From an uncultured Candidatus Saccharibacteria bacterium (GTDB lineage Bacteria; Patescibacteriota; Dojkabacteria; SC72), in contig CAZSUV010000001.1 of the NCBI GenBank assembly GCA_964610125.1, positions 120,035 to 184,034 of the forward strand: a DNA stretch of 64,000 nt. The letters are read 5' to 3'. Position numbers and translations under genes: made by a program. Position 1 is the first letter of the stretch. The number at the start of each line of letters is the position of its first letter. Below, piece by piece: positions 12,653 to 40,889 of this stretch. Below the pieces are notes generated by a model. It worked only from the letters and a program-made list of their open reading frames with translations. It did no database searches and was not told the DNA's origin.

Positions 12653-12960
12653 GGGCGCAAGTATTCCTAGATGATTGCTCTTGCTATTTTGGTGAGAGAG
12701 GAAAGTCCGGACTCTATGTCGGTCTCGAATATCTCGAGATAGGTGCCAGCGTGAGCTGGAAGGGAGTGATCTTTTGGTTAAAAGGGCAACAGAAAGTTAT
12801 ACCGCCTCGAAAGAGGTAAGGGTGAAATGGTGGTGTAAGAGACCACCGGGTATTGTAGTAATACAATATTGCGAGGCAACCCCCACCTAGAGCAAGGTTA
12901 AAACCGCTTAGATAGATAATCATCATAAACAGAATTCGGCTTATTGGGTGCTTGCGCACT
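12653..12960 (+). ncRNA. rnpB: RNase P RNA, bacterial type A
   Basis: Conserved GAGGAAAGTCCGG (P4 5' strand), AGGGTGAAATGGTGGTGTAAGAGACCACC (CR-II/III) and ACAGAATTCGGCTTAT (P4 3' strand/CR-V). The P1 helix pairs GGGCGCAAG at 12653-12661 with CTTGCGC at 12951-12957. The track ORF 12714..12959(-) is spurious. Confidence 0.85.
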
Positions 12961-25451: not shown

Positions 25452-25916
25452 ATGAAAGAAAAAATATTACTGACCAAAGAAAAGAAAGAAGCCTTAGAAT
25501 TAGAATTGAAGAACTTAGTTGAAGTTAAGAAGCCCGAACTATCTGCTGCGTTAGCCTTAGCTAGGCAAAATGATCTTAGTGAAGATACTGATGATTTAAG
25601 CGTAATGCTTGAGGACAAAGAAACAATAGATGAAAGAATAGAGGAATTAAAAAAATTAATTGCGAATTCGAAAGTCATTGAGAAGAAAGCATGCAATCCT
25701 AACTTTGTTGGTGTTGGAACTGAAATAAAGGCTGAATTCAATGGTAAAGTGCAGAATCTGAAATTGGTTTCTACATTAGAATCTGATCCTCTTAAGGGAT
25801 ATATTTCTGAGGGTTCACCATTAGGAAAAGCATTGTTAAAAGCTCAGGTTGGCAAAACCATAGACTTTAAGGTTAAAGGAAGAAAATTTGAATACAAGAT
25901 ATTAGAGATTTGCTAA
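25452..25916 (+). CDS. GreA/GreB-family transcription factor, copy 2
   Basis: 154 aa; N-terminal coiled coil with NDLSEDTDD; C-terminal domain (SPLGKALLKAQVGK). Confidence 0.8.
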   Translation: MKEKILLTKEKKEALELELKNLVEVKKPELSAALALARQNDLSEDTDDLSVMLEDKETIDERIEELKKLIANSKVIEKKACNPNFVGVGTEIKAEFNGKVQNLKLVSTLESDPLKGYISEGSPLGKALLKAQVGKTIDFKVKGRKFEYKILEIC

Positions 25917-27212
25917 ATCTTCAATCTTAACTCTTTCTTGCTTCATTGTATCTCTGTCTCTTACTGTTACAGTATTATCTTCTAATGTCTGGTAATCTAC
26001 GGTTATACAGTATGGTGTACCGATTTCATCCTGATATCGATATCGCTTACCAATATTTCCTCTTGCATCCCATACAACCTTTTTGGTATCCGAAAGTTTT
26101 TCAAAGATTTCTCTAGCTTTGTTAACGATTTCTTCTTTGTTAGAGACCAATGGGAATACTGCAGCTTTGTATGCAGCTATTTCAGGATTAATCTTTAATA
26201 TTGTTCGTATTTCACCATTCTCCAATGTCTCTTCCTCGTATGAATCCAAGAGTAAGAACAAGAATGTCCTATCCACACCACCTGAAGTCTCAACAATATT
26301 TGGAATATATTTCTCTCCAGTTTGAGGATCAACATATGAAAGATCTTTCCCAGAGAACTTACTGTGTTGCGTGAGATCGTAATCAGCTCTCCAGTGGATA
26401 CCTTCATTTTCTGCCCATCCCCATGGTGCTAGATATTCAACATCAAATGCTTTTTTAGCATAGAAGACCAATTTCTCCTTAGGATGTTCAAAGAATCTAA
26501 GATTCTCATGCTTTCGGTACAATTTCTTGTAGAAGTTCATTCTTTCTTCCTTCCAATATTCAAAAGATTTTTCCATATCATTTGGATGCACAAAGTACTG
26601 CATATCCCACTGTTCAAATTCTCTAGTTCTAAATGTGAATTTGTTAGGAGTGATTTCATTTCTAAAAGCTTTACCAATCTGTGCAATACCAAAAGGAATT
26701 TGCTGTCTTGTAGAATCAACAACATTCTTGAAATCAAGATATATTGTTTGACATGCTTCACCTCTTAAATATGCAGTTGCTTTCTCTCCTTCGATGACAC
26801 CAACTTCTGTTTTGAAAAGAATATTATATTTTCTTGGTTCTGTGAAATCAGTACCACCACATTTTGGACATTTTCCTTCAATATCCTCAGGTCTAAATCG
26901 TGCATGACATTTTTTACATTCTATAGATTCATCTGCAAAGTTTTGAACATGACCAGATGCTTCCCATACCTTAGGGTGGGTGATAATGGTACCATCAATA
27001 CCGACGACATTTTCTCGTTTGTCGACCATATTCTTCCACCAATATCTTTTGAGATTGTTTTTCATCTCTACACCTACAGGACCATAGTCATAGAATCCTC
27101 CTATACCGCCATATATTTCAGAGTTTTGAAATATAATACCTCTTCTTTTACTGAGGGATGTGACTTTTTGTAGAAGATCTTCCATAGGTCGAAAGATGAA
27201 ATTAATATTCAT
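25902..27212 (-). CDS. glyQS: Glycine--tRNA ligase, alpha2 (archaeal/eukaryotic-like) type
   Basis: 436 aa class II aaRS with motifs matching dimeric GlyRS (IYGGIGGFYDYGPVG...). Confidence 0.9.
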   Translation of the reverse strand: MNINFIFRPMEDLLQKVTSLSKRRGIIFQNSEIYGGIGGFYDYGPVGVEMKNNLKRYWWKNMVDKRENVVGIDGTIITHPKVWEASGHVQNFADESIECKKCHARFRPEDIEGKCPKCGGTDFTEPRKYNILFKTEVGVIEGEKATAYLRGEACQTIYLDFKNVVDSTRQQIPFGIAQIGKAFRNEITPNKFTFRTREFEQWDMQYFVHPNDMEKSFEYWKEERMNFYKKLYRKHENLRFFEHPKEKLVFYAKKAFDVEYLAPWGWAENEGIHWRADYDLTQHSKFSGKDLSYVDPQTGEKYIPNIVETSGGVDRTFLFLLLDSYEEETLENGEIRTILKINPEIAAYKAAVFPLVSNKEEIVNKAREIFEKLSDTKKVVWDARGNIGKRYRYQDEIGTPYCITVDYQTLEDNTVTVRDRDTMKQERVKIEDLANL

Positions 27213-27293: not shown

Positions 27294-28838
27294 ATGGAGG
27301 ATACACAAAGGAGTGACATGCTCGGGCAAAGACAAGTAAGATTAGAGAAGATCGAAGCACTCAAGAAGCTAGGTGTGGAGATATATCCTGCGAAGTCATA
27401 TAAACAATTCCACAATGGAGAAATATTAAACAATTTTGAGAAATATGAAGGGCAAGAAGTTTGTCTTGATGGTAGAGTAGTAGCTTGGAGAGAGCATGGC
27501 CAGCTTTTGTTTGGAAATATTATGGATCAAACTGGAACTATCCAGATTATGATTAGAGAAAATGAATTGGTGGAAGACCTTGCAAAAGGATATTTGGGAT
27601 TTGATAAACTTACACTCTTGGATTTAGCAGATTTTGTAGAAGTATATGGCACAATTGGTAAAACTCGAACAGGTGAAATCTCTGTTATGGTTAAAAACAT
27701 TAGATTACTAACTAAAGCATTAAGACCAATCCCACGAAAATTAGAAAATAAAGAACAGATATTTAGAAGAAGATACCTAGATTTAACTGTTGAACCAGAA
27801 AGAATAAAGTTGTTTGAAAGAAAAGCAAAGTTCTGGCAGGTACAGAGAGATTTACTTAGAGCTGAAGGGTTCTTGGAAGTGGAAGTTCCAGTATTGGAAG
27901 CTGTAACTGGTGGAGCTGATGCTGCACCTTTCATTACACATCACAATGCATTGAACCAAGATTTCTACCTTAGAATCTCTACAGAATTGTATCAAAAGAG
28001 ATTAATAGGTGGTGGTTTTGAGAAGGTATATACATTAGGTCCTAACTTCAGAAATGAGGGTATGGATGATGAGCATCTTCAAGAATACTACCAGTTGGAA
28101 TGGTATTGGGGATATGCAAACTACAGAGACAATATGGATTTGGTAAGAAGATTGTTCTTGGAGATTGCTAACAAGGTATATGGCAGAACCAAGTTTACAA
28201 CCAGAGGTCACACTTTTGATTTGGCTGATGAGTGGAAGGAGATTGATTACACAACTGTTATAAAGGAAAGATTTGATATTGATATCTTTAATGATTCGGA
28301 TGAGAAGATGTTAAAGGCGATTAATGATAATCATATTGAAATGGGTGGAGAGGTTAACAGGAATAGAATGATTGATACGCTTTGGAAATCAATCAGAGCT
28401 ACTATATCTGGTCCTGCATATTTAGTTAACCAACCTAAGATTATTTCACCTTTAGCAAAATCACATAAGGATAATCCTGAACTAACAGAGAGATTCCAAG
28501 TGGTTATAGCTGGTAGCGAATTAGGTAATGGGTATTCTGAGATTAATGATCCTCAAGATCAGTTAGATAGGTTCTTGGAGCAACAGGCTTTGAGAGAGAG
28601 TGGGGATGATGAAGCTCAGATGTTAGATATTGATTTTGTAGAGATGTTGGAATATGGCATGCCTCCTGTAAGTGGATGGGGTCATAGTGAAAGAGTATTC
28701 TGGTTTATGGAGGATATTTCTGGTAGAGAGGGTACTTTCTTCCCACAGATGAGAATAGAGGTAGAGAATACTACAAAGGAGATATACAAGGACAAAGTCA
28801 AATTCAAGGAAACTGTTAAGAAAGAGGAGAAGAAATAG
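27294..28838 (+). CDS. lysS: Lysine--tRNA ligase (class II)
   Basis: N-terminal OB fold; class II core with FRNEGMDDEHLQEYYQLEWY; 514 aa. Confidence 0.9.
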   Translation: MEDTQRSDMLGQRQVRLEKIEALKKLGVEIYPAKSYKQFHNGEILNNFEKYEGQEVCLDGRVVAWREHGQLLFGNIMDQTGTIQIMIRENELVEDLAKGYLGFDKLTLLDLADFVEVYGTIGKTRTGEISVMVKNIRLLTKALRPIPRKLENKEQIFRRRYLDLTVEPERIKLFERKAKFWQVQRDLLRAEGFLEVEVPVLEAVTGGADAAPFITHHNALNQDFYLRISTELYQKRLIGGGFEKVYTLGPNFRNEGMDDEHLQEYYQLEWYWGYANYRDNMDLVRRLFLEIANKVYGRTKFTTRGHTFDLADEWKEIDYTTVIKERFDIDIFNDSDEKMLKAINDNHIEMGGEVNRNRMIDTLWKSIRATISGPAYLVNQPKIISPLAKSHKDNPELTERFQVVIAGSELGNGYSEINDPQDQLDRFLEQQALRESGDDEAQMLDIDFVEMLEYGMPPVSGWGHSERVFWFMEDISGREGTFFPQMRIEVENTTKEIYKDKVKFKETVKKEEKK

Positions 28839-28885: not shown

Positions 28886-29224
28886 GAAAAACAGCACAAA
28901 CGTGCAGAATTAGAGTTGGGCTATATCCGATGGGCACGATAGGGTTTACACCTAAACATGGCGATTATCAGTCGCTTGCTCCGTAGTTGAGCTTCGTGCC
29001 CCCGAACAAAAAGTGGTGCATGTGTTATGGGATTAGAACCCTACCGTCTCCGTTGTCCGCTTGAGAGCGATGCCAATTGCATAGGCTACACATTGCACCA
29101 TAAAGTGATATCTACTTGATCTAACCACGCTCATAGGGAGCTGGGTAGATATACTACAAAATTTGAAAAGAACAATTACATTTAATAACAAAGAAATTAT
29201 AATATAACAATTTCTATCGGTCAA
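28886..29224 (-). ncRNA. Candidate structured non-coding RNA unit of unknown identity: promoter, two tRNA-like modules, intrinsic terminator
   Basis: The minus strand carries TTGACC (29224-29219), a 17 nt spacer and TATAAT (29201-29196). Downstream is an 88 nt module (29100-29013) closed by an 11 bp stem and containing GGTTCTAATCCC. Next is a 73 nt cloverleaf (29001-28929): GGGCACG acceptor, GCTC/GAGC D-stem, CTGATAA anticodon loop, degenerate TGTAAAC T-loop. The unit ends with a hairpin plus T5 at 28908-28886. Local GC is well above that of the flanks. Confidence 0.45.
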
Positions 29225-29261: not shown

Positions 29262-29633
29262 ATGGAATCAATCAAAGATCTCTTACAACAAATCAAACAA
29301 GGAGCTGATGAAAAAGCAGATGAAGCAACTACACCACAAAATACACTCTTTGATACAAAGAAATTAGCAACCAATCCAAACAAGCTATTTGATAATAAAC
29401 ATAAATATATATCCACTGAATATCAAATGTATGGACTGAGATTAGCAGCCAAATTAGATGACAAGAAACGAGCTACAATGTATATCAAATGGGCCAAGGA
29501 AAAACCAAGAGCAATACTAGAAACAGCATATAGCTTCTGTATAGACTATCCAAGTGCAAGAGATAAAAGTAAGATATTTATGTGGAAAGTAAAAGAACTA
29601 GAAGATGAAAGAAAAAATAAACCCAAAGAGTAA
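29262..29633 (+). CDS. Hypothetical lysine-rich protein, 123 aa
   Basis: Intact ORF upstream of and overlapping the permease pair. Confidence 0.45.
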   Translation: MESIKDLLQQIKQGADEKADEATTPQNTLFDTKKLATNPNKLFDNKHKYISTEYQMYGLRLAAKLDDKKRATMYIKWAKEKPRAILETAYSFCIDYPSARDKSKIFMWKVKELEDERKNKPKE

Positions 29634-32391: not shown

Positions 32392-33660
32392 ATGATAGAT
32401 ATTAAAAAAATAGTTGAAGAAACAGATATTGTTAAACAAGGTTTACTAAAAAGAATGGATGAAGATAAATTGGATCTCAATGGGATTATTTCCTTGTATG
32501 AAAAACGAAAACAAATCCAAACCCAATATGATACAAAAAGAGGTGAGCAGAATGGATTCAATGAACAGATGTCAAAAGTAGAAAAGGGGAGTGATGAATT
32601 TAAGAAATTGGTAACAGATCTCAAAGCAAAAGCAGAGGAAGTTAAAGCATTGGAAGTAGAATTAAAAAATGTTGAAGCAGAATTGAAAGCTAAAATGGAA
32701 GTTTTACCAAATATTCCTGAAGAGGATGTTGTAGCTGGAGGAAAAGAAAACAATGAAGTTATAAAGATGGTCGGAGAAAAACCAACCTTTGATTTTCCAA
32801 TAAAAGATCATGTTGAATTGGGGAAAAATCTTGGTATGTTTGACTTTGAAACTGCATCTAAGGTATCTGGAACCAACTTCTCTATGTACCGAGCAATGGG
32901 TGCTAGGTTGGAATGGGCTTTGATTAACTTCTTCATATCTGAACATAACAAGTCTGGATATGAGATGGTGATCCCTCCTAATCTTGTTGTAGAACAATCT
33001 GCATATGCAGCAGGCCAATTACCAAAGTTTAAAGATGATGTGTATTGGGTACAAGATGGACTATGTTTAGTTCCAACTGCAGAAACAGTTTTAACCAATA
33101 TTTACAGAGATGATCTTTTGGAAGAAAAAGACTTACCTAAGAAATTCTTTGCATATACCCCATGTTACAGAAGAGAAGCTGGTACATACCGAGCATCAGA
33201 AAAGGGATTAATTCGAGTACACCAATTCAACAAAGTTGAGATGTATCAATTTACAGCAGAGGATAAGTCAAAGGAAGCATTTGAAGAACTAGTAGCGAAA
33301 GCTGAAGATTTAGTTAAGAAATTAGGGCTTCATTACAGAGTAGTTAAACTTGCAGCAGGCGACTGTTCTGCAGGAGCAGCTAGAACATATGATATTGAAG
33401 TATATATGCCAGCTATGGATACTTACTATGAAGTAAGTTCTGTATCCAATGTAACTGATTATCAGGCGAGAAGAGGAAATATGAAGTACAAACCAGCAGA
33501 TGGAAGCAAACCAAAGTATATGCATACATTAAATGGATCTGGATTAGCTACAAGTAGATTGATGGTAGCTTTAGTTGAAGCATATCAACAGAAGGATGGA
33601 AGCATTATTGTTCCTGAAGTACTTAGACCATTCATGGGTGTAGATAAAATAGAGATATAA
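32392..33660 (+). CDS. serS: Serine--tRNA ligase
   Basis: N-terminal coiled-coil arm; class II core (FRREAGTYRASEKGLIRVHQFNKVE); 422 aa. Confidence 0.95.
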   Translation: MIDIKKIVEETDIVKQGLLKRMDEDKLDLNGIISLYEKRKQIQTQYDTKRGEQNGFNEQMSKVEKGSDEFKKLVTDLKAKAEEVKALEVELKNVEAELKAKMEVLPNIPEEDVVAGGKENNEVIKMVGEKPTFDFPIKDHVELGKNLGMFDFETASKVSGTNFSMYRAMGARLEWALINFFISEHNKSGYEMVIPPNLVVEQSAYAAGQLPKFKDDVYWVQDGLCLVPTAETVLTNIYRDDLLEEKDLPKKFFAYTPCYRREAGTYRASEKGLIRVHQFNKVEMYQFTAEDKSKEAFEELVAKAEDLVKKLGLHYRVVKLAAGDCSAGAARTYDIEVYMPAMDTYYEVSSVSNVTDYQARRGNMKYKPADGSKPKYMHTLNGSGLATSRLMVALVEAYQQKDGSIIVPEVLRPFMGVDKIEI

Positions 33661-40815: not shown

Positions 40816-40889
40816 CGGGGCGTAGTTCAGATGGCTAGAGCGCTTGCATGGGGTGCAAGAGGTCGCACGTTCAAGTCGTGTCGCCCCGA
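40816..40889 (+). tRNA. tRNA-Pro (anticodon GGG), no encoded CCA
   Basis: Manual cloverleaf: C1:G72 with A73 (bacterial tRNA-Pro identity), acceptor CGGGGCG/CGCCCCG, D-arm GTTC/GAGC, anticodon stem CTTGC/GCAAG with loop ATGGGGT, T-arm GCACG-TTCAAGT-CGTGT. Confidence 0.8.

Follow-up and report, generated by a model that had tools for sequence, protein, structure and literature searches.

Bacteria of the candidate phyla radiation (CPR, also called Patescibacteria) possess very small genomes with few known regulators, and to our knowledge almost nothing is known of their non-coding RNAs (ncRNAs). The described systems closest to the RNA considered here are of several kinds. In some eukaryotic and viral transcripts, such as MALAT1 with its mascRNA, a structured ncRNA is followed by a tRNA-shaped module. 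YrlA RNAs have a permuted hairpin arrangement, while phages and mobile elements carry accessory tRNA arrays, which are extra and non-essential, show odd anticodon loops and turn over rapidly. Non-proteogenic tRNA-Gly of Staphylococcus aureus, a cell-wall donor, lacks G18, G19, U55 and C56 (PMC4574755), and the T stem of non-proteogenic tRNAs in this species (A49-U65, U50-A64, A51-U63) goes along with less tight EF-Tu binding (PMC7826273). In Patescibacteria themselves group I introns have recently been described in tRNA genes (PMC13011429). Here we analyse a stretch of 64,000 nucleotides from contig CAZSUV010000001.1 (the window), in which a gap of 423 nt separates lysS (27294–28838, plus strand, stop codon 28836–28838) from an open reading frame (ORF) of 123 aa (orf123, 29262–29633, plus strand). 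The gap contains a minus-strand unit, one allele of a strain-variable swappable slot in a subclade of Dojkabacteria, and at somewhat less than even confidence we propose that it is an accessory self-contained ncRNA gene whose tRNA-derived module is mainly a processing and stability handle and whose leader is the effector.

About 180 related loci (labelled L001, L002 and so on) were gathered with lysS as an anchor. In about 35 related Dojkabacteria loci the gap between lysS and orf123 harbours a minus-strand cassette, and the subclade with this slot comprises loci in which the lysS product is at least 77% identical. One or two units are found per locus, all of them built in the same order: TTGACC, 17 ± 1 nt, a −10-like hexamer (TAnAAT), GTTCTT or GTTCAT, a leader, a U-rich linker, in most cases a tRNA or tRNA-like module, and a long hairpin. 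The leaders are 120–200 nt long and closed by a long-range stem. They comprise at least eight mutually unalignable types, independently of which the tRNA part is exchanged. The leader was kept and the tRNA part exchanged between the window and L013, between L094 and L145 and between L017 and L180. Leaders of type C have alike folds with many compensatory pairs, and in the leaders of L092 and L070 stem P1 carries a double compensatory change. A stand-alone non-coding unit on the minus strand had been proposed by a sequence-only reading of this DNA, and this proposal is upheld; the search for conservation and covariation in related genomes, which was to be its check, gave conserved loci and compensatory pairs. 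All the features it described are present, with slightly shifted coordinates (unit coordinates below are those of the minus strand).

The sigma-70-type promoter of the unit occupies 29224–29196 (TTGACC at 29224–29219, a 17-nt spacer and TATAAT at 29201–29196), exactly as had been read earlier, and matches the consensus at 11 of 12 positions. It is convincing because promoter and GTTCTT are conserved together at the slot in 26 related loci. The pattern TTGACC/T, 17 (±1) nt and TAnAnT followed by GTTCTT/GTTCAT is found there in the same slot and on the same strand, and it occurs once in the 64-kb window; all 27 matches of the regular expression for promoter plus motif (window included) are located at the slot on the minus strand, and none was found elsewhere in these loci. 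Among these matches the −10 variant differs by cassette type, each type having its own. Downstream of the −10 hexamer lies a predicted single-stranded 5′ leader (29190–29158) with the motif GUUCUUUU (29173–29166), GTTCTT or GTTCAT being present after the −10 in every cassette type, and transcription would start near position 29189. The −10 element is part of the palindrome ATTATAAT (29196–29203). The plus strand of this palindrome reads TATAAT at 29198–29203, with ATTACA 17 nt upstream, 59 nt ahead of the start codon of orf123. Judging by these motifs, the minus-strand promoter and this candidate promoter on the orf123 side may be back-to-back, overlapping and mutually exclusive.

G+C content of 0.48–0.51 across 28900–29149, against 0.20–0.35 in the flanking spacer, agrees with the GC-rich core noted previously. 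The first structured part is the 5′ hairpin domain (29157–29105), in which the outer stem GUAUAUCUAC/GUAGAUAU-AC surrounds the hairpin CCAGCUC-CCUAU-GAGCGUGG (−15.2 kcal/mol, z = −2.58). It is conserved in L011 and L013, which have 8 nt inserted in the internal loop, and partly deleted in L093. Next comes an 85-nt domain (29099–29015) that folds into a four-way junction, in which a closing stem of 10 bp encloses a D-like hairpin, then a long hairpin in the middle and finally the T-like hairpin GGG-UUCUAAU-CCC (29041–29029). Its predicted energy is −30.5 kcal/mol (z = −2.99), and none of 200 shuffled sequences was as stable. In the sequence-only reading this element spanned 88 nt (29100–29013) and was closed by 11 bp; the element itself, its closing stem and the T-arm-like motif are real, while the span is 85 nt and the stem, GGUGCA-A-AUGUG/CACAU-GCACC, has 10 bp and one bulged A. 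Variable columns of the domain comprise 13 of 31 unpaired versus 6 of the 54 remaining positions (Fisher p = 0.002), and a compensatory change GCC/GGC to GCUU/AAGC was registered among homologs in the D-like stem. The closing stem GGUG...CACC is common to the window, L006, L084 and L089 and covaries with the sister cassettes of L006 and L084.

This domain had been regarded as one of two tRNA-like modules, and here the earlier interpretation has to be abandoned. No match to the tRNA model RF00005 was obtained for 29099–29015 even at E ≤ 10 in a search of 601 nt. ARAGORN suggested a 77-nt “tRNA-Leu(caa)” only with the threshold lowered to 80%, with a poor anticodon arm and two mismatches in the anticodon stem. 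The T-like loop varies in homologs at positions 2–4 (UUCUAAU, UUAUAAU, UCCCAAU), and the sister elements of L006, L084 and L089 keep the closing stem and have neither the D-like nor the T-like hairpin. Only the module at 29001–28931 is demonstrably tRNA-derived; the junction domain is recognised by no tRNA model. Pairing of the leader with the anticodon in the manner of a T-box was considered and rejected: AUC of the junction domain is kept in L013 despite a different anticodon loop.

A U-rich linker ACUUUUUGUUCGG (29014–29002), a feature read directly from the sequence and found ahead of the tRNA in all cassette types, connects the junction domain with a cloverleaf of 71 nt (29001–28931). The latter scores 43.8 bits with RF00005, for which 29 bits is the gathering threshold (E = 4.7e-8 when searched locally, 5e-6 for the whole window), and the cloverleaf is the minimum-free-energy fold of this segment (z = −3.31). 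Its stems have 7, 4, 5 and 5 bp, with GGGCACG/CGUGCCC in the acceptor and GCUC/GAGC in the D stem, and the 7-nt anticodon loop is CUGAUAA. U33, G34, A35, U36, A37, A38 and A73 are in place, and CCA is not encoded. The elbow is non-canonical: with A8, the D loop AACUACG and the T loop UGUAAAC (or a GUAA tetraloop) it lacks U8, G18, G19, U55 and C56, and the T stem opens with the mismatch U49.U65, followed by U50-A64 and A51-U63. The acceptor, D stem, anticodon GAU, A73, loop oddities and missing CCA had all been correctly recognised before, within a span given as 73 nt (29001–28929) that needs to be shortened by two nucleotides. UUCG of the linker can pair with CGGA of the trailer (28929–28926), giving an extended stem in the minimum-free-energy fold; in L011 this pairing is retained by a one-sided change U.G to U-A. 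The bacterial identity set for Ile consists of A73, C4-G69, U12-A23, C29-G41, G34, A35, U36, A37, A38, G16, U20 and U21 (PMC9976931). The cloverleaf keeps the first nine of these twelve and lacks G16, U20 and U21 of the D loop, and therefore it is derived from tRNA-Ile(GAU) and is not a canonical tRNA-Ile. The alternative of a degenerate tRNA-Ile with a companion element, listed in the earlier reading among others, is in this way essentially borne out for 29001–28931 and the domain upstream.

Neither ARAGORN at any setting used nor the default filtered Rfam scan reported 29001–28931, which was found with laxer Rfam filters. The default miss is technical rather than biological, because an ordinary tRNA-Pro(GGG) at 40816–40889 (plus strand; 53.8 bits locally, called by ARAGORN) was also missed by both whole-window Rfam scans. 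The speed filters of Rfam drop real tRNAs in this AT-rich genome. Default annotation (ARAGORN and filtered Rfam) thus overlooks the element of the window, and some alleles of the slot would be mis-annotated as ordinary tRNAs (Ser, Leu, Thr), so that tRNA inventories and inferences on the genetic code would be inflated or distorted.

Could the module be an extra, or even the sole, tRNA-Ile(GAU) working in translation behind a long structured 5′ leader? It does exceed the Rfam threshold, has the 7-nt loop with U33, GAU, A37 and A38, and carries nine of the twelve identity elements (PMC9976931). In the L011 homolog (52.7 bits, the same T loop, D loop AAUCACG) GAU is kept, and the anticodon stem is maintained by a compensatory change of pair 28-42 from G-C in one sequence to A-U in the other; other alleles resemble competent tRNAs. 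Nonetheless, we find such a role distinctly improbable. The missing U8, G18, G19, U55 and C56 and D-loop G16, U20 and U21 are at odds with it, and the T stem (U49.U65, U50-A64, A51-U63) is near the non-proteogenic type of S. aureus (PMC7826273). The score of 43.8 bits is 10–17 bits below those of the housekeeping tRNAs of the window (60.6 and 53.8), which have no long leader. Besides, the slots of L084, L085 and L006 hold no Ile-type tRNA and L013 has another body with a 6-nt loop, so that an essential tRNA-Ile must be encoded elsewhere; among the collected loci the cloverleaf is present only in L011 (with L086-88), L093 and, in part, L010. Housekeeping tRNAs, for example the tRNA-Glu upstream, are retained in close relatives, unlike the tRNA of the slot.

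The same departures from the canon would suit a non-proteinogenic aminoacyl carrier, charged by IleRS, kept off the ribosome and feeding a tRNA-dependent transferase, as cell-wall tRNA-Gly does in S. aureus. Most Ile identity elements are kept, G18, G19, U55 and C56 are missing as in the staphylococcal tRNA (PMC4574755), and U50-A64 and A51-U63, which go with less tight EF-Tu binding, are shared (PMC7826273). The identity implied by the anticodon shifts, however, between strains and is often unreadable, which is not expected of a dedicated donor, and no Fem-, MprF- or L/F-transferase-like gene was found among the seven neighbouring proteins scanned. This makes a carrier function very improbable in our opinion. 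We know of no Ile-specific tRNA-dependent transferase.

The region of trailer and putative terminator (28930–28852) is convergent with lysS. Its outer 14-bp hairpin, CCAACUCUAAUUCU (28919–28906)/AGAAUUAGAUUUGG (28865–28852), has a predicted energy of −22.8 kcal/mol (z = −2.99), which none of 200 shuffled sequences equalled, and is followed by UUGAAGUUUU. The hairpin with U5 previously assigned to 28908–28886 as the end of the unit does exist as GCAC-GUUU-GUGC (28905–28894) followed by UGUUUUU (28893–28887), but with a stem of only 4 bp and inside the outer hairpin. The terminator consensus scan called neither the inner hairpin with its U-run nor the outer hairpin. A long hairpin with an inner GCAC-N4/5-GUGC was found in all cassette types.

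The distribution of cassettes does not follow that of the flanking genes. Among about 180 loci whole-unit homologs of the window's type (type A) were found only in L011, L086-88, L093, L013 and L010, and further look-ups for them returned only other cassette types. L011 (WS6 bacterium GW2011_GWC2_36_7) is 87.5% identical to the unit over 328 nt; L086-88 gave the same nhmmer match as L011; the L093 unit has a deletion in the 5′ hairpin; L013 is 81.6% identical, and L010 is an identical partial contig. A Logan contig from SRR13723393 equals the window in sequence, and SRR22387883 and the JGI samples Ga0209373/Ga0209800 contain related strains. LBSF01 (GW2011_GWC2_36_7), CAIVJR01 and CAZLLO01 are examples of complete or near-complete genomes with differing alleles. 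Promoter, 5′ hairpin and junction domain are conserved in the alignment of homologs. L013 combines the leader of the window's type with a different tRNA body, in which the D and T loops are canonical, the anticodon loop has 6 nt and G73 is accompanied by CCA. The loci closest by lysS nucleotide identity, L085 (93.2%), L084 (92.4%) and L006 (91.2%), all have unrelated cassettes and share with the window only 58 nt beside orf123, while cassettes of the same type occur in L011 (lysS 90.4%) and L013 (lysS 85.8%). Cassettes of types A and D diverge between −35 and −10, a place where one recombination breakpoint appears to lie, and L011 contains a type A unit in tandem with a unit of the L006 type. 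L098 (2465–2468) is a precise empty site with respect to L097 (2586–2987): the whole cassette of 402 nt is missing, and the flanks are 95.7% and 98.8% identical. Only A-rich microhomology was seen at the L097/L098 junctions, with no convincing terminal inverted repeats or target-site duplication. In more distant relatives lysS and the small ORF are only 30–40 nt apart, which makes the cassette an insertion specific to this lineage. It is single-copy, structurally constrained and dispensable.

Other relatives carry protein genes in this place: a PDDEXK nuclease YhcG/DUF1016 directly after lysS in L100 (4078–5103; also in L101, L102 and L080), assigned by PADLOC to the candidate defence family PDC-S02 (E = 8e-132), an orphan ORF of 305 aa in L001 and L179, and a giant Ig-like protein in L003 and L020. 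The slot is therefore a general hotspot for accessory DNA, and one may ask whether the unit is only a relic of recombination or insertion at such a hotspot, that is, a decaying tRNA pseudogene with leftover sequence and no role. Besides the admission of unrelated protein genes and the dispensability shown by the empty site of L098, this idea can draw on the tRNA scores of alleles, which form a continuum from 69 to 27 bits with some broken acceptor stems (L092), and on the 88% identity of the unit with that of L011, no better than 90% for lysS. What neutral decay does not predict is the retention of promoter, GTTCTT, closing stems and terminator hairpin across at least eight unalignable types, the avoidance of stems by substitutions (p = 0.002), compensatory pairs in several helices and the clustering of differences in anticodon loops where an even spread is expected. 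A relic without function is unlikely for these reasons. A repeat family or a miniature inverted-repeat transposable element was also rejected: paralogs are absent from the 64-kb window and the flanks of 180 loci, and neither inverted repeats nor duplications at the L097/L098 junctions are convincing.

The greatest variation in the slot falls on the tRNA modules, which score from 68.6 down to 27.3 bits. Eleven anticodons were registered (GAU, GCC, UCC, GGU, UGU, CGU, UCG, UUG, CAG, UGA and GGA), and CAG, UGA and GGA, which are anticodons of Ser or Leu, reside on class I tRNA bodies. Anticodon loops deviate from 7 nt in L013 (6 nt), L085 and L070 (8 nt), L099 (13 nt) and L002 (67 nt); L007 has G and L180 has A at position 33, and D loops of several modules lack GG. 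In L002 (4777–4901, minus strand), as well as in L181 and L182, the tRNA body is well formed (53.9 bits) and bears a structured insertion of 60 nt in the anticodon loop, which matches no intron model. Many modules have in common the T arm and variable region AGGUUGUGRGUUCAAAUCYCAY, and this suggests that they evolved in place and are not translocated housekeeping tRNAs. Over 410 columns L092 and L070 share 92% identity, but 7 of the 9 anticodon-loop columns differ (P = 4e-7, post hoc).

Patchy changes of this kind, which in alleles 92% identical are concentrated in the anticodon loop and the acceptor's 5′ strand, would be expected of a hypervariable RNA engaged in conflict, serving as decoy or guide directed at tRNA-targeting toxins or at phage or host factors, with horizontal exchange of alleles and diversifying selection. 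Cassette type is incongruent with similarity of the flanking genes, presence or absence varies at the strain level, and the slot holds the candidate defence nuclease YhcG/DUF1016 (PDC-S02, E = 8e-132) in other relatives. The argument from location is weak, however; no partner protein, toxin or target came to light, viral contigs and phage and plasmid records yielded no copies, and relaxed constraint together with selection against mis-decoding explains the loop variation equally well. A conflict-related RNA consequently appears distinctly improbable, and the bolder formulation, that a CPR subclade exchanges RNA-only cassettes at one slot and employs leader and tRNA scaffold with its fast-diversifying anticodon loop as conflict decoys or guides, is still quite unlikely. 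If true, it would mean a new kind of hypervariable RNA-based accessory system.

Phage or plasmid origin of the unit was dismissed on the basis of database searches: exact type A patterns gave 0 hits in IMG/VR, the promoter pattern gave 15 unrelated matches, and BLAST returned nothing from phage records and only a 62-nt AT-rich chance match from plasmid records. In one viral contig (L166 4529–5020, IMGVR_UViG_3300025723_000078; 27 tRNA genes in the 9.8 kb fetched) the promoter/GTTCTTT pattern, located between tRNA-Cys and tRNA-Asp, is followed by a tRNA-like element whose closing stem is long. This could be a coincidence or a related arrangement of leader plus tRNA-like element.

Coming back to the accessory ncRNA gene with a tRNA-derived handle, which we favour, its anatomy, conservation, covariation, tRNA ancestry and cassette behaviour are shown by the comparisons above, and transcription, processing by RNase P and the division of labour between two parts are presumed. 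Transcription of the minus strand from the near-consensus sigma-70 promoter would yield a primary transcript of about 300–350 nt, containing successively the 5′ hairpin, the 85-nt four-way junction, the U-rich linker, the 71-nt cloverleaf with leader-trailer pairing and the long putative terminator hairpin shared with lysS. RNase P, presumably cutting 5′ of G29001, would set free two products, a tRNA-shaped RNA and a structured 5′ RNA of about 190 nt whose 3′ tail is U-rich. The 5′ RNA would then be the main functional product, and the tRNA-derived module would serve mainly as a 3′ processing and stabilising handle freed from decoding, like the mascRNA module of MALAT1. The gene of RNase P RNA lies in the window at 12657–12959 (plus strand); it is of bacterial class A (153.8 bits), reduced to 303 nt, with two model segments (42 and 24 positions) absent. 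We give preference to the handle because alleles exchange the tRNA part behind a retained leader and because the anticodon domain is free in size.

Several points weigh against this scheme. The promoter pattern taken alone is not above chance (4 sites versus 2.9 ± 1.7 in shuffles). The non-canonical T loop could weaken recognition by RNase P. Some cassettes (L014 unit 1, L085 unit 2 and L002 unit 1) appear to have no tRNA-like module, so that the tRNA handle is not obligatory. In L089b, L129 and L018 the module scores 60–69 bits, encodes CCA and has Gly identity pairs, U73 and the T stem G49-U65/U50-A64/G51-C63, which is of the strong EF-Tu type (PMC7826273); as judged by these features, such alleles seem to fit real tRNA genes better than mere handles. 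Finally, the retention of GAU and most Ile identity elements in the window and L011 hints that the tRNA part may matter in itself.

Leaders of types B and C (L018 4685–4820, L145 1254–1380, L099 4197–4316 and L007 5700–5860, all on minus strands) contain conserved unpaired C-rich motifs, namely hairpin loops of the UCCCCU type and a ACCUCCUUA-like stretch, which resembles the anti-Shine-Dalgarno sequence of 16S rRNA. These motifs are absent from the type A leader of the window. They might pair with ribosome-binding sites. An origin of the cassette from a fragment of a 16S 3′ end plus spacer tRNA-Ile was rejected: only the 8-mer UAACAAGG and the anti-Shine-Dalgarno-like motif of type B/C leaders resemble 16S, and this resemblance does not extend to the type A leader.

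As for the neighbourhood, the best matches of the lysS product are lysine-tRNA ligases of Candidatus Dojkabacteria (WS6, CPR). The orf123 product belongs to no family in the Pfam scan, and two genes with ABC2_membrane_6 (Pfam) lie downstream of it. Near the slot there is a cluster of aminoacyl-tRNA synthetases, namely a GlyRS-type class II enzyme (25902–27212, minus strand), LysRS (27294–28838, plus strand) and SerRS (32392–33660, plus strand), with trmD and greA upstream. The proximity of these genes to a slot with several tRNA-Gly-like alleles is probably a coincidence. A minus-strand ATG ORF of 68 aa (29239–29033) runs through the promoter and the 5′ hairpin into the junction domain. It starts upstream of the −35 element, and it is non-coding, because indels of 1 nt and 8 nt disrupt the frame in L011 and L013.

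The Rfam scans found only tRNA in the unit, and no tmRNA, Y RNA, YrlA, 6S, SRP, T-box, riboswitch or group I/II intron matched its region at E ≤ 10; the leaders of sister cassettes likewise matched only tRNA (E ≤ 0.01 or E ≤ 0.5). As the sequence-only reading anticipated, no family explains the whole unit, the tRNA model covering 29001–28931 being the sole result. Its other suggestion, an architecture recalling bacterial Y RNAs or tmRNA, found no support in Rfam or ARAGORN. Modular composition from a tRNA-shaped part and a long closing stem does bring to mind a ribonucleoprotein scaffold of the YrlA or tmRNA kind, but the hairpins are ordered from the 5′ end as D-like, long arm and T-like, unlike YrlA, and strain variability and dispensability of the window's element are unlike tmRNA. 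Standard and permuted forms of tmRNA were rejected along with this: ARAGORN detects none by default and offers a “permuted tmRNA” only among spurious calls at a 70% threshold. No TROVE domain (rsr/Ro60) was found among the seven neighbouring proteins scanned against Pfam, the rest of the window being unscanned. Such a scaffold is scarcely credible. A group I intron in a tRNA gene (compare PMC13011429) was rejected since no intron model matches and the cloverleaf is uninterrupted, and attC-like ends of integrons were rejected since the R-box consensus is unmatched.

The literature search gave no description of such cassettes, group I introns within patescibacterial tRNA genes (PMC13011429) being the nearest but different phenomenon. 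The components belong to known kinds, tRNA-derived ncRNA and co-transcribed structured small RNA, while the RNA-only, swappable and strain-variable slot with independent shuffling of leader and tRNA is new. One CPR lineage keeps, accordingly, a dedicated strain-variable place for genes made of RNA only. If they are expressed and processed as proposed, they would represent a bacterial counterpart of tRNA-like processing handles or an RNA-based accessory or conflict system.

In comparison with canonical tRNA-Ile(GAU) (RF00005), the element shares the 7/4/5/5-bp cloverleaf, CUGAUAA, A73, C4-G69, U12-A23 and C29-G41 and scores above the threshold, but it has A8, the 49-65 mismatch and no CCA, lacks G18, G19, U55, C56, G16, U20 and U21, stands behind a structured leader of about 190 nt and is absent from the closest relatives. 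YrlA is likewise a modular ncRNA uniting a tRNA mimic with other helices; the unit of the window differs in the missing Rfam match, in the order of helices, in hypervariability and in dispensability. Non-proteogenic tRNA-Gly of S. aureus shares the absence of G18, G19, U55 and C56 and the pairs U50-A64 and A51-U63, yet it has a fixed Gly identity, resides in tRNA operons, has known Fem transferase partners and is conserved within staphylococci, whereas alleles of the slot differ in anticodon from strain to strain and have no known transferase. From the tRNA arrays of phages and mobile elements the cassette is distinguished by its single copy, located in one chromosomal slot, by the structured leader that always precedes the tRNA part and by its own promoter and presumed terminator. 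In design it resembles MALAT1-mascRNA, MEN-beta and the tRNA-miRNA units of MHV68, where a tRNA-shaped module also lies directly 3′ of a structured ncRNA in a single transcript, leader pairs with trailer around the acceptor stem (compare PMC8457004) and decoding places no constraint on the anticodon domain. Those are eukaryotic or viral transcripts of Pol II/III, whereas the unit of the window has a bacterial sigma-70 promoter and a presumed processing pathway, and some alleles of its slot are apparently competent tRNAs; the comparison is one of functional analogy, not homology.

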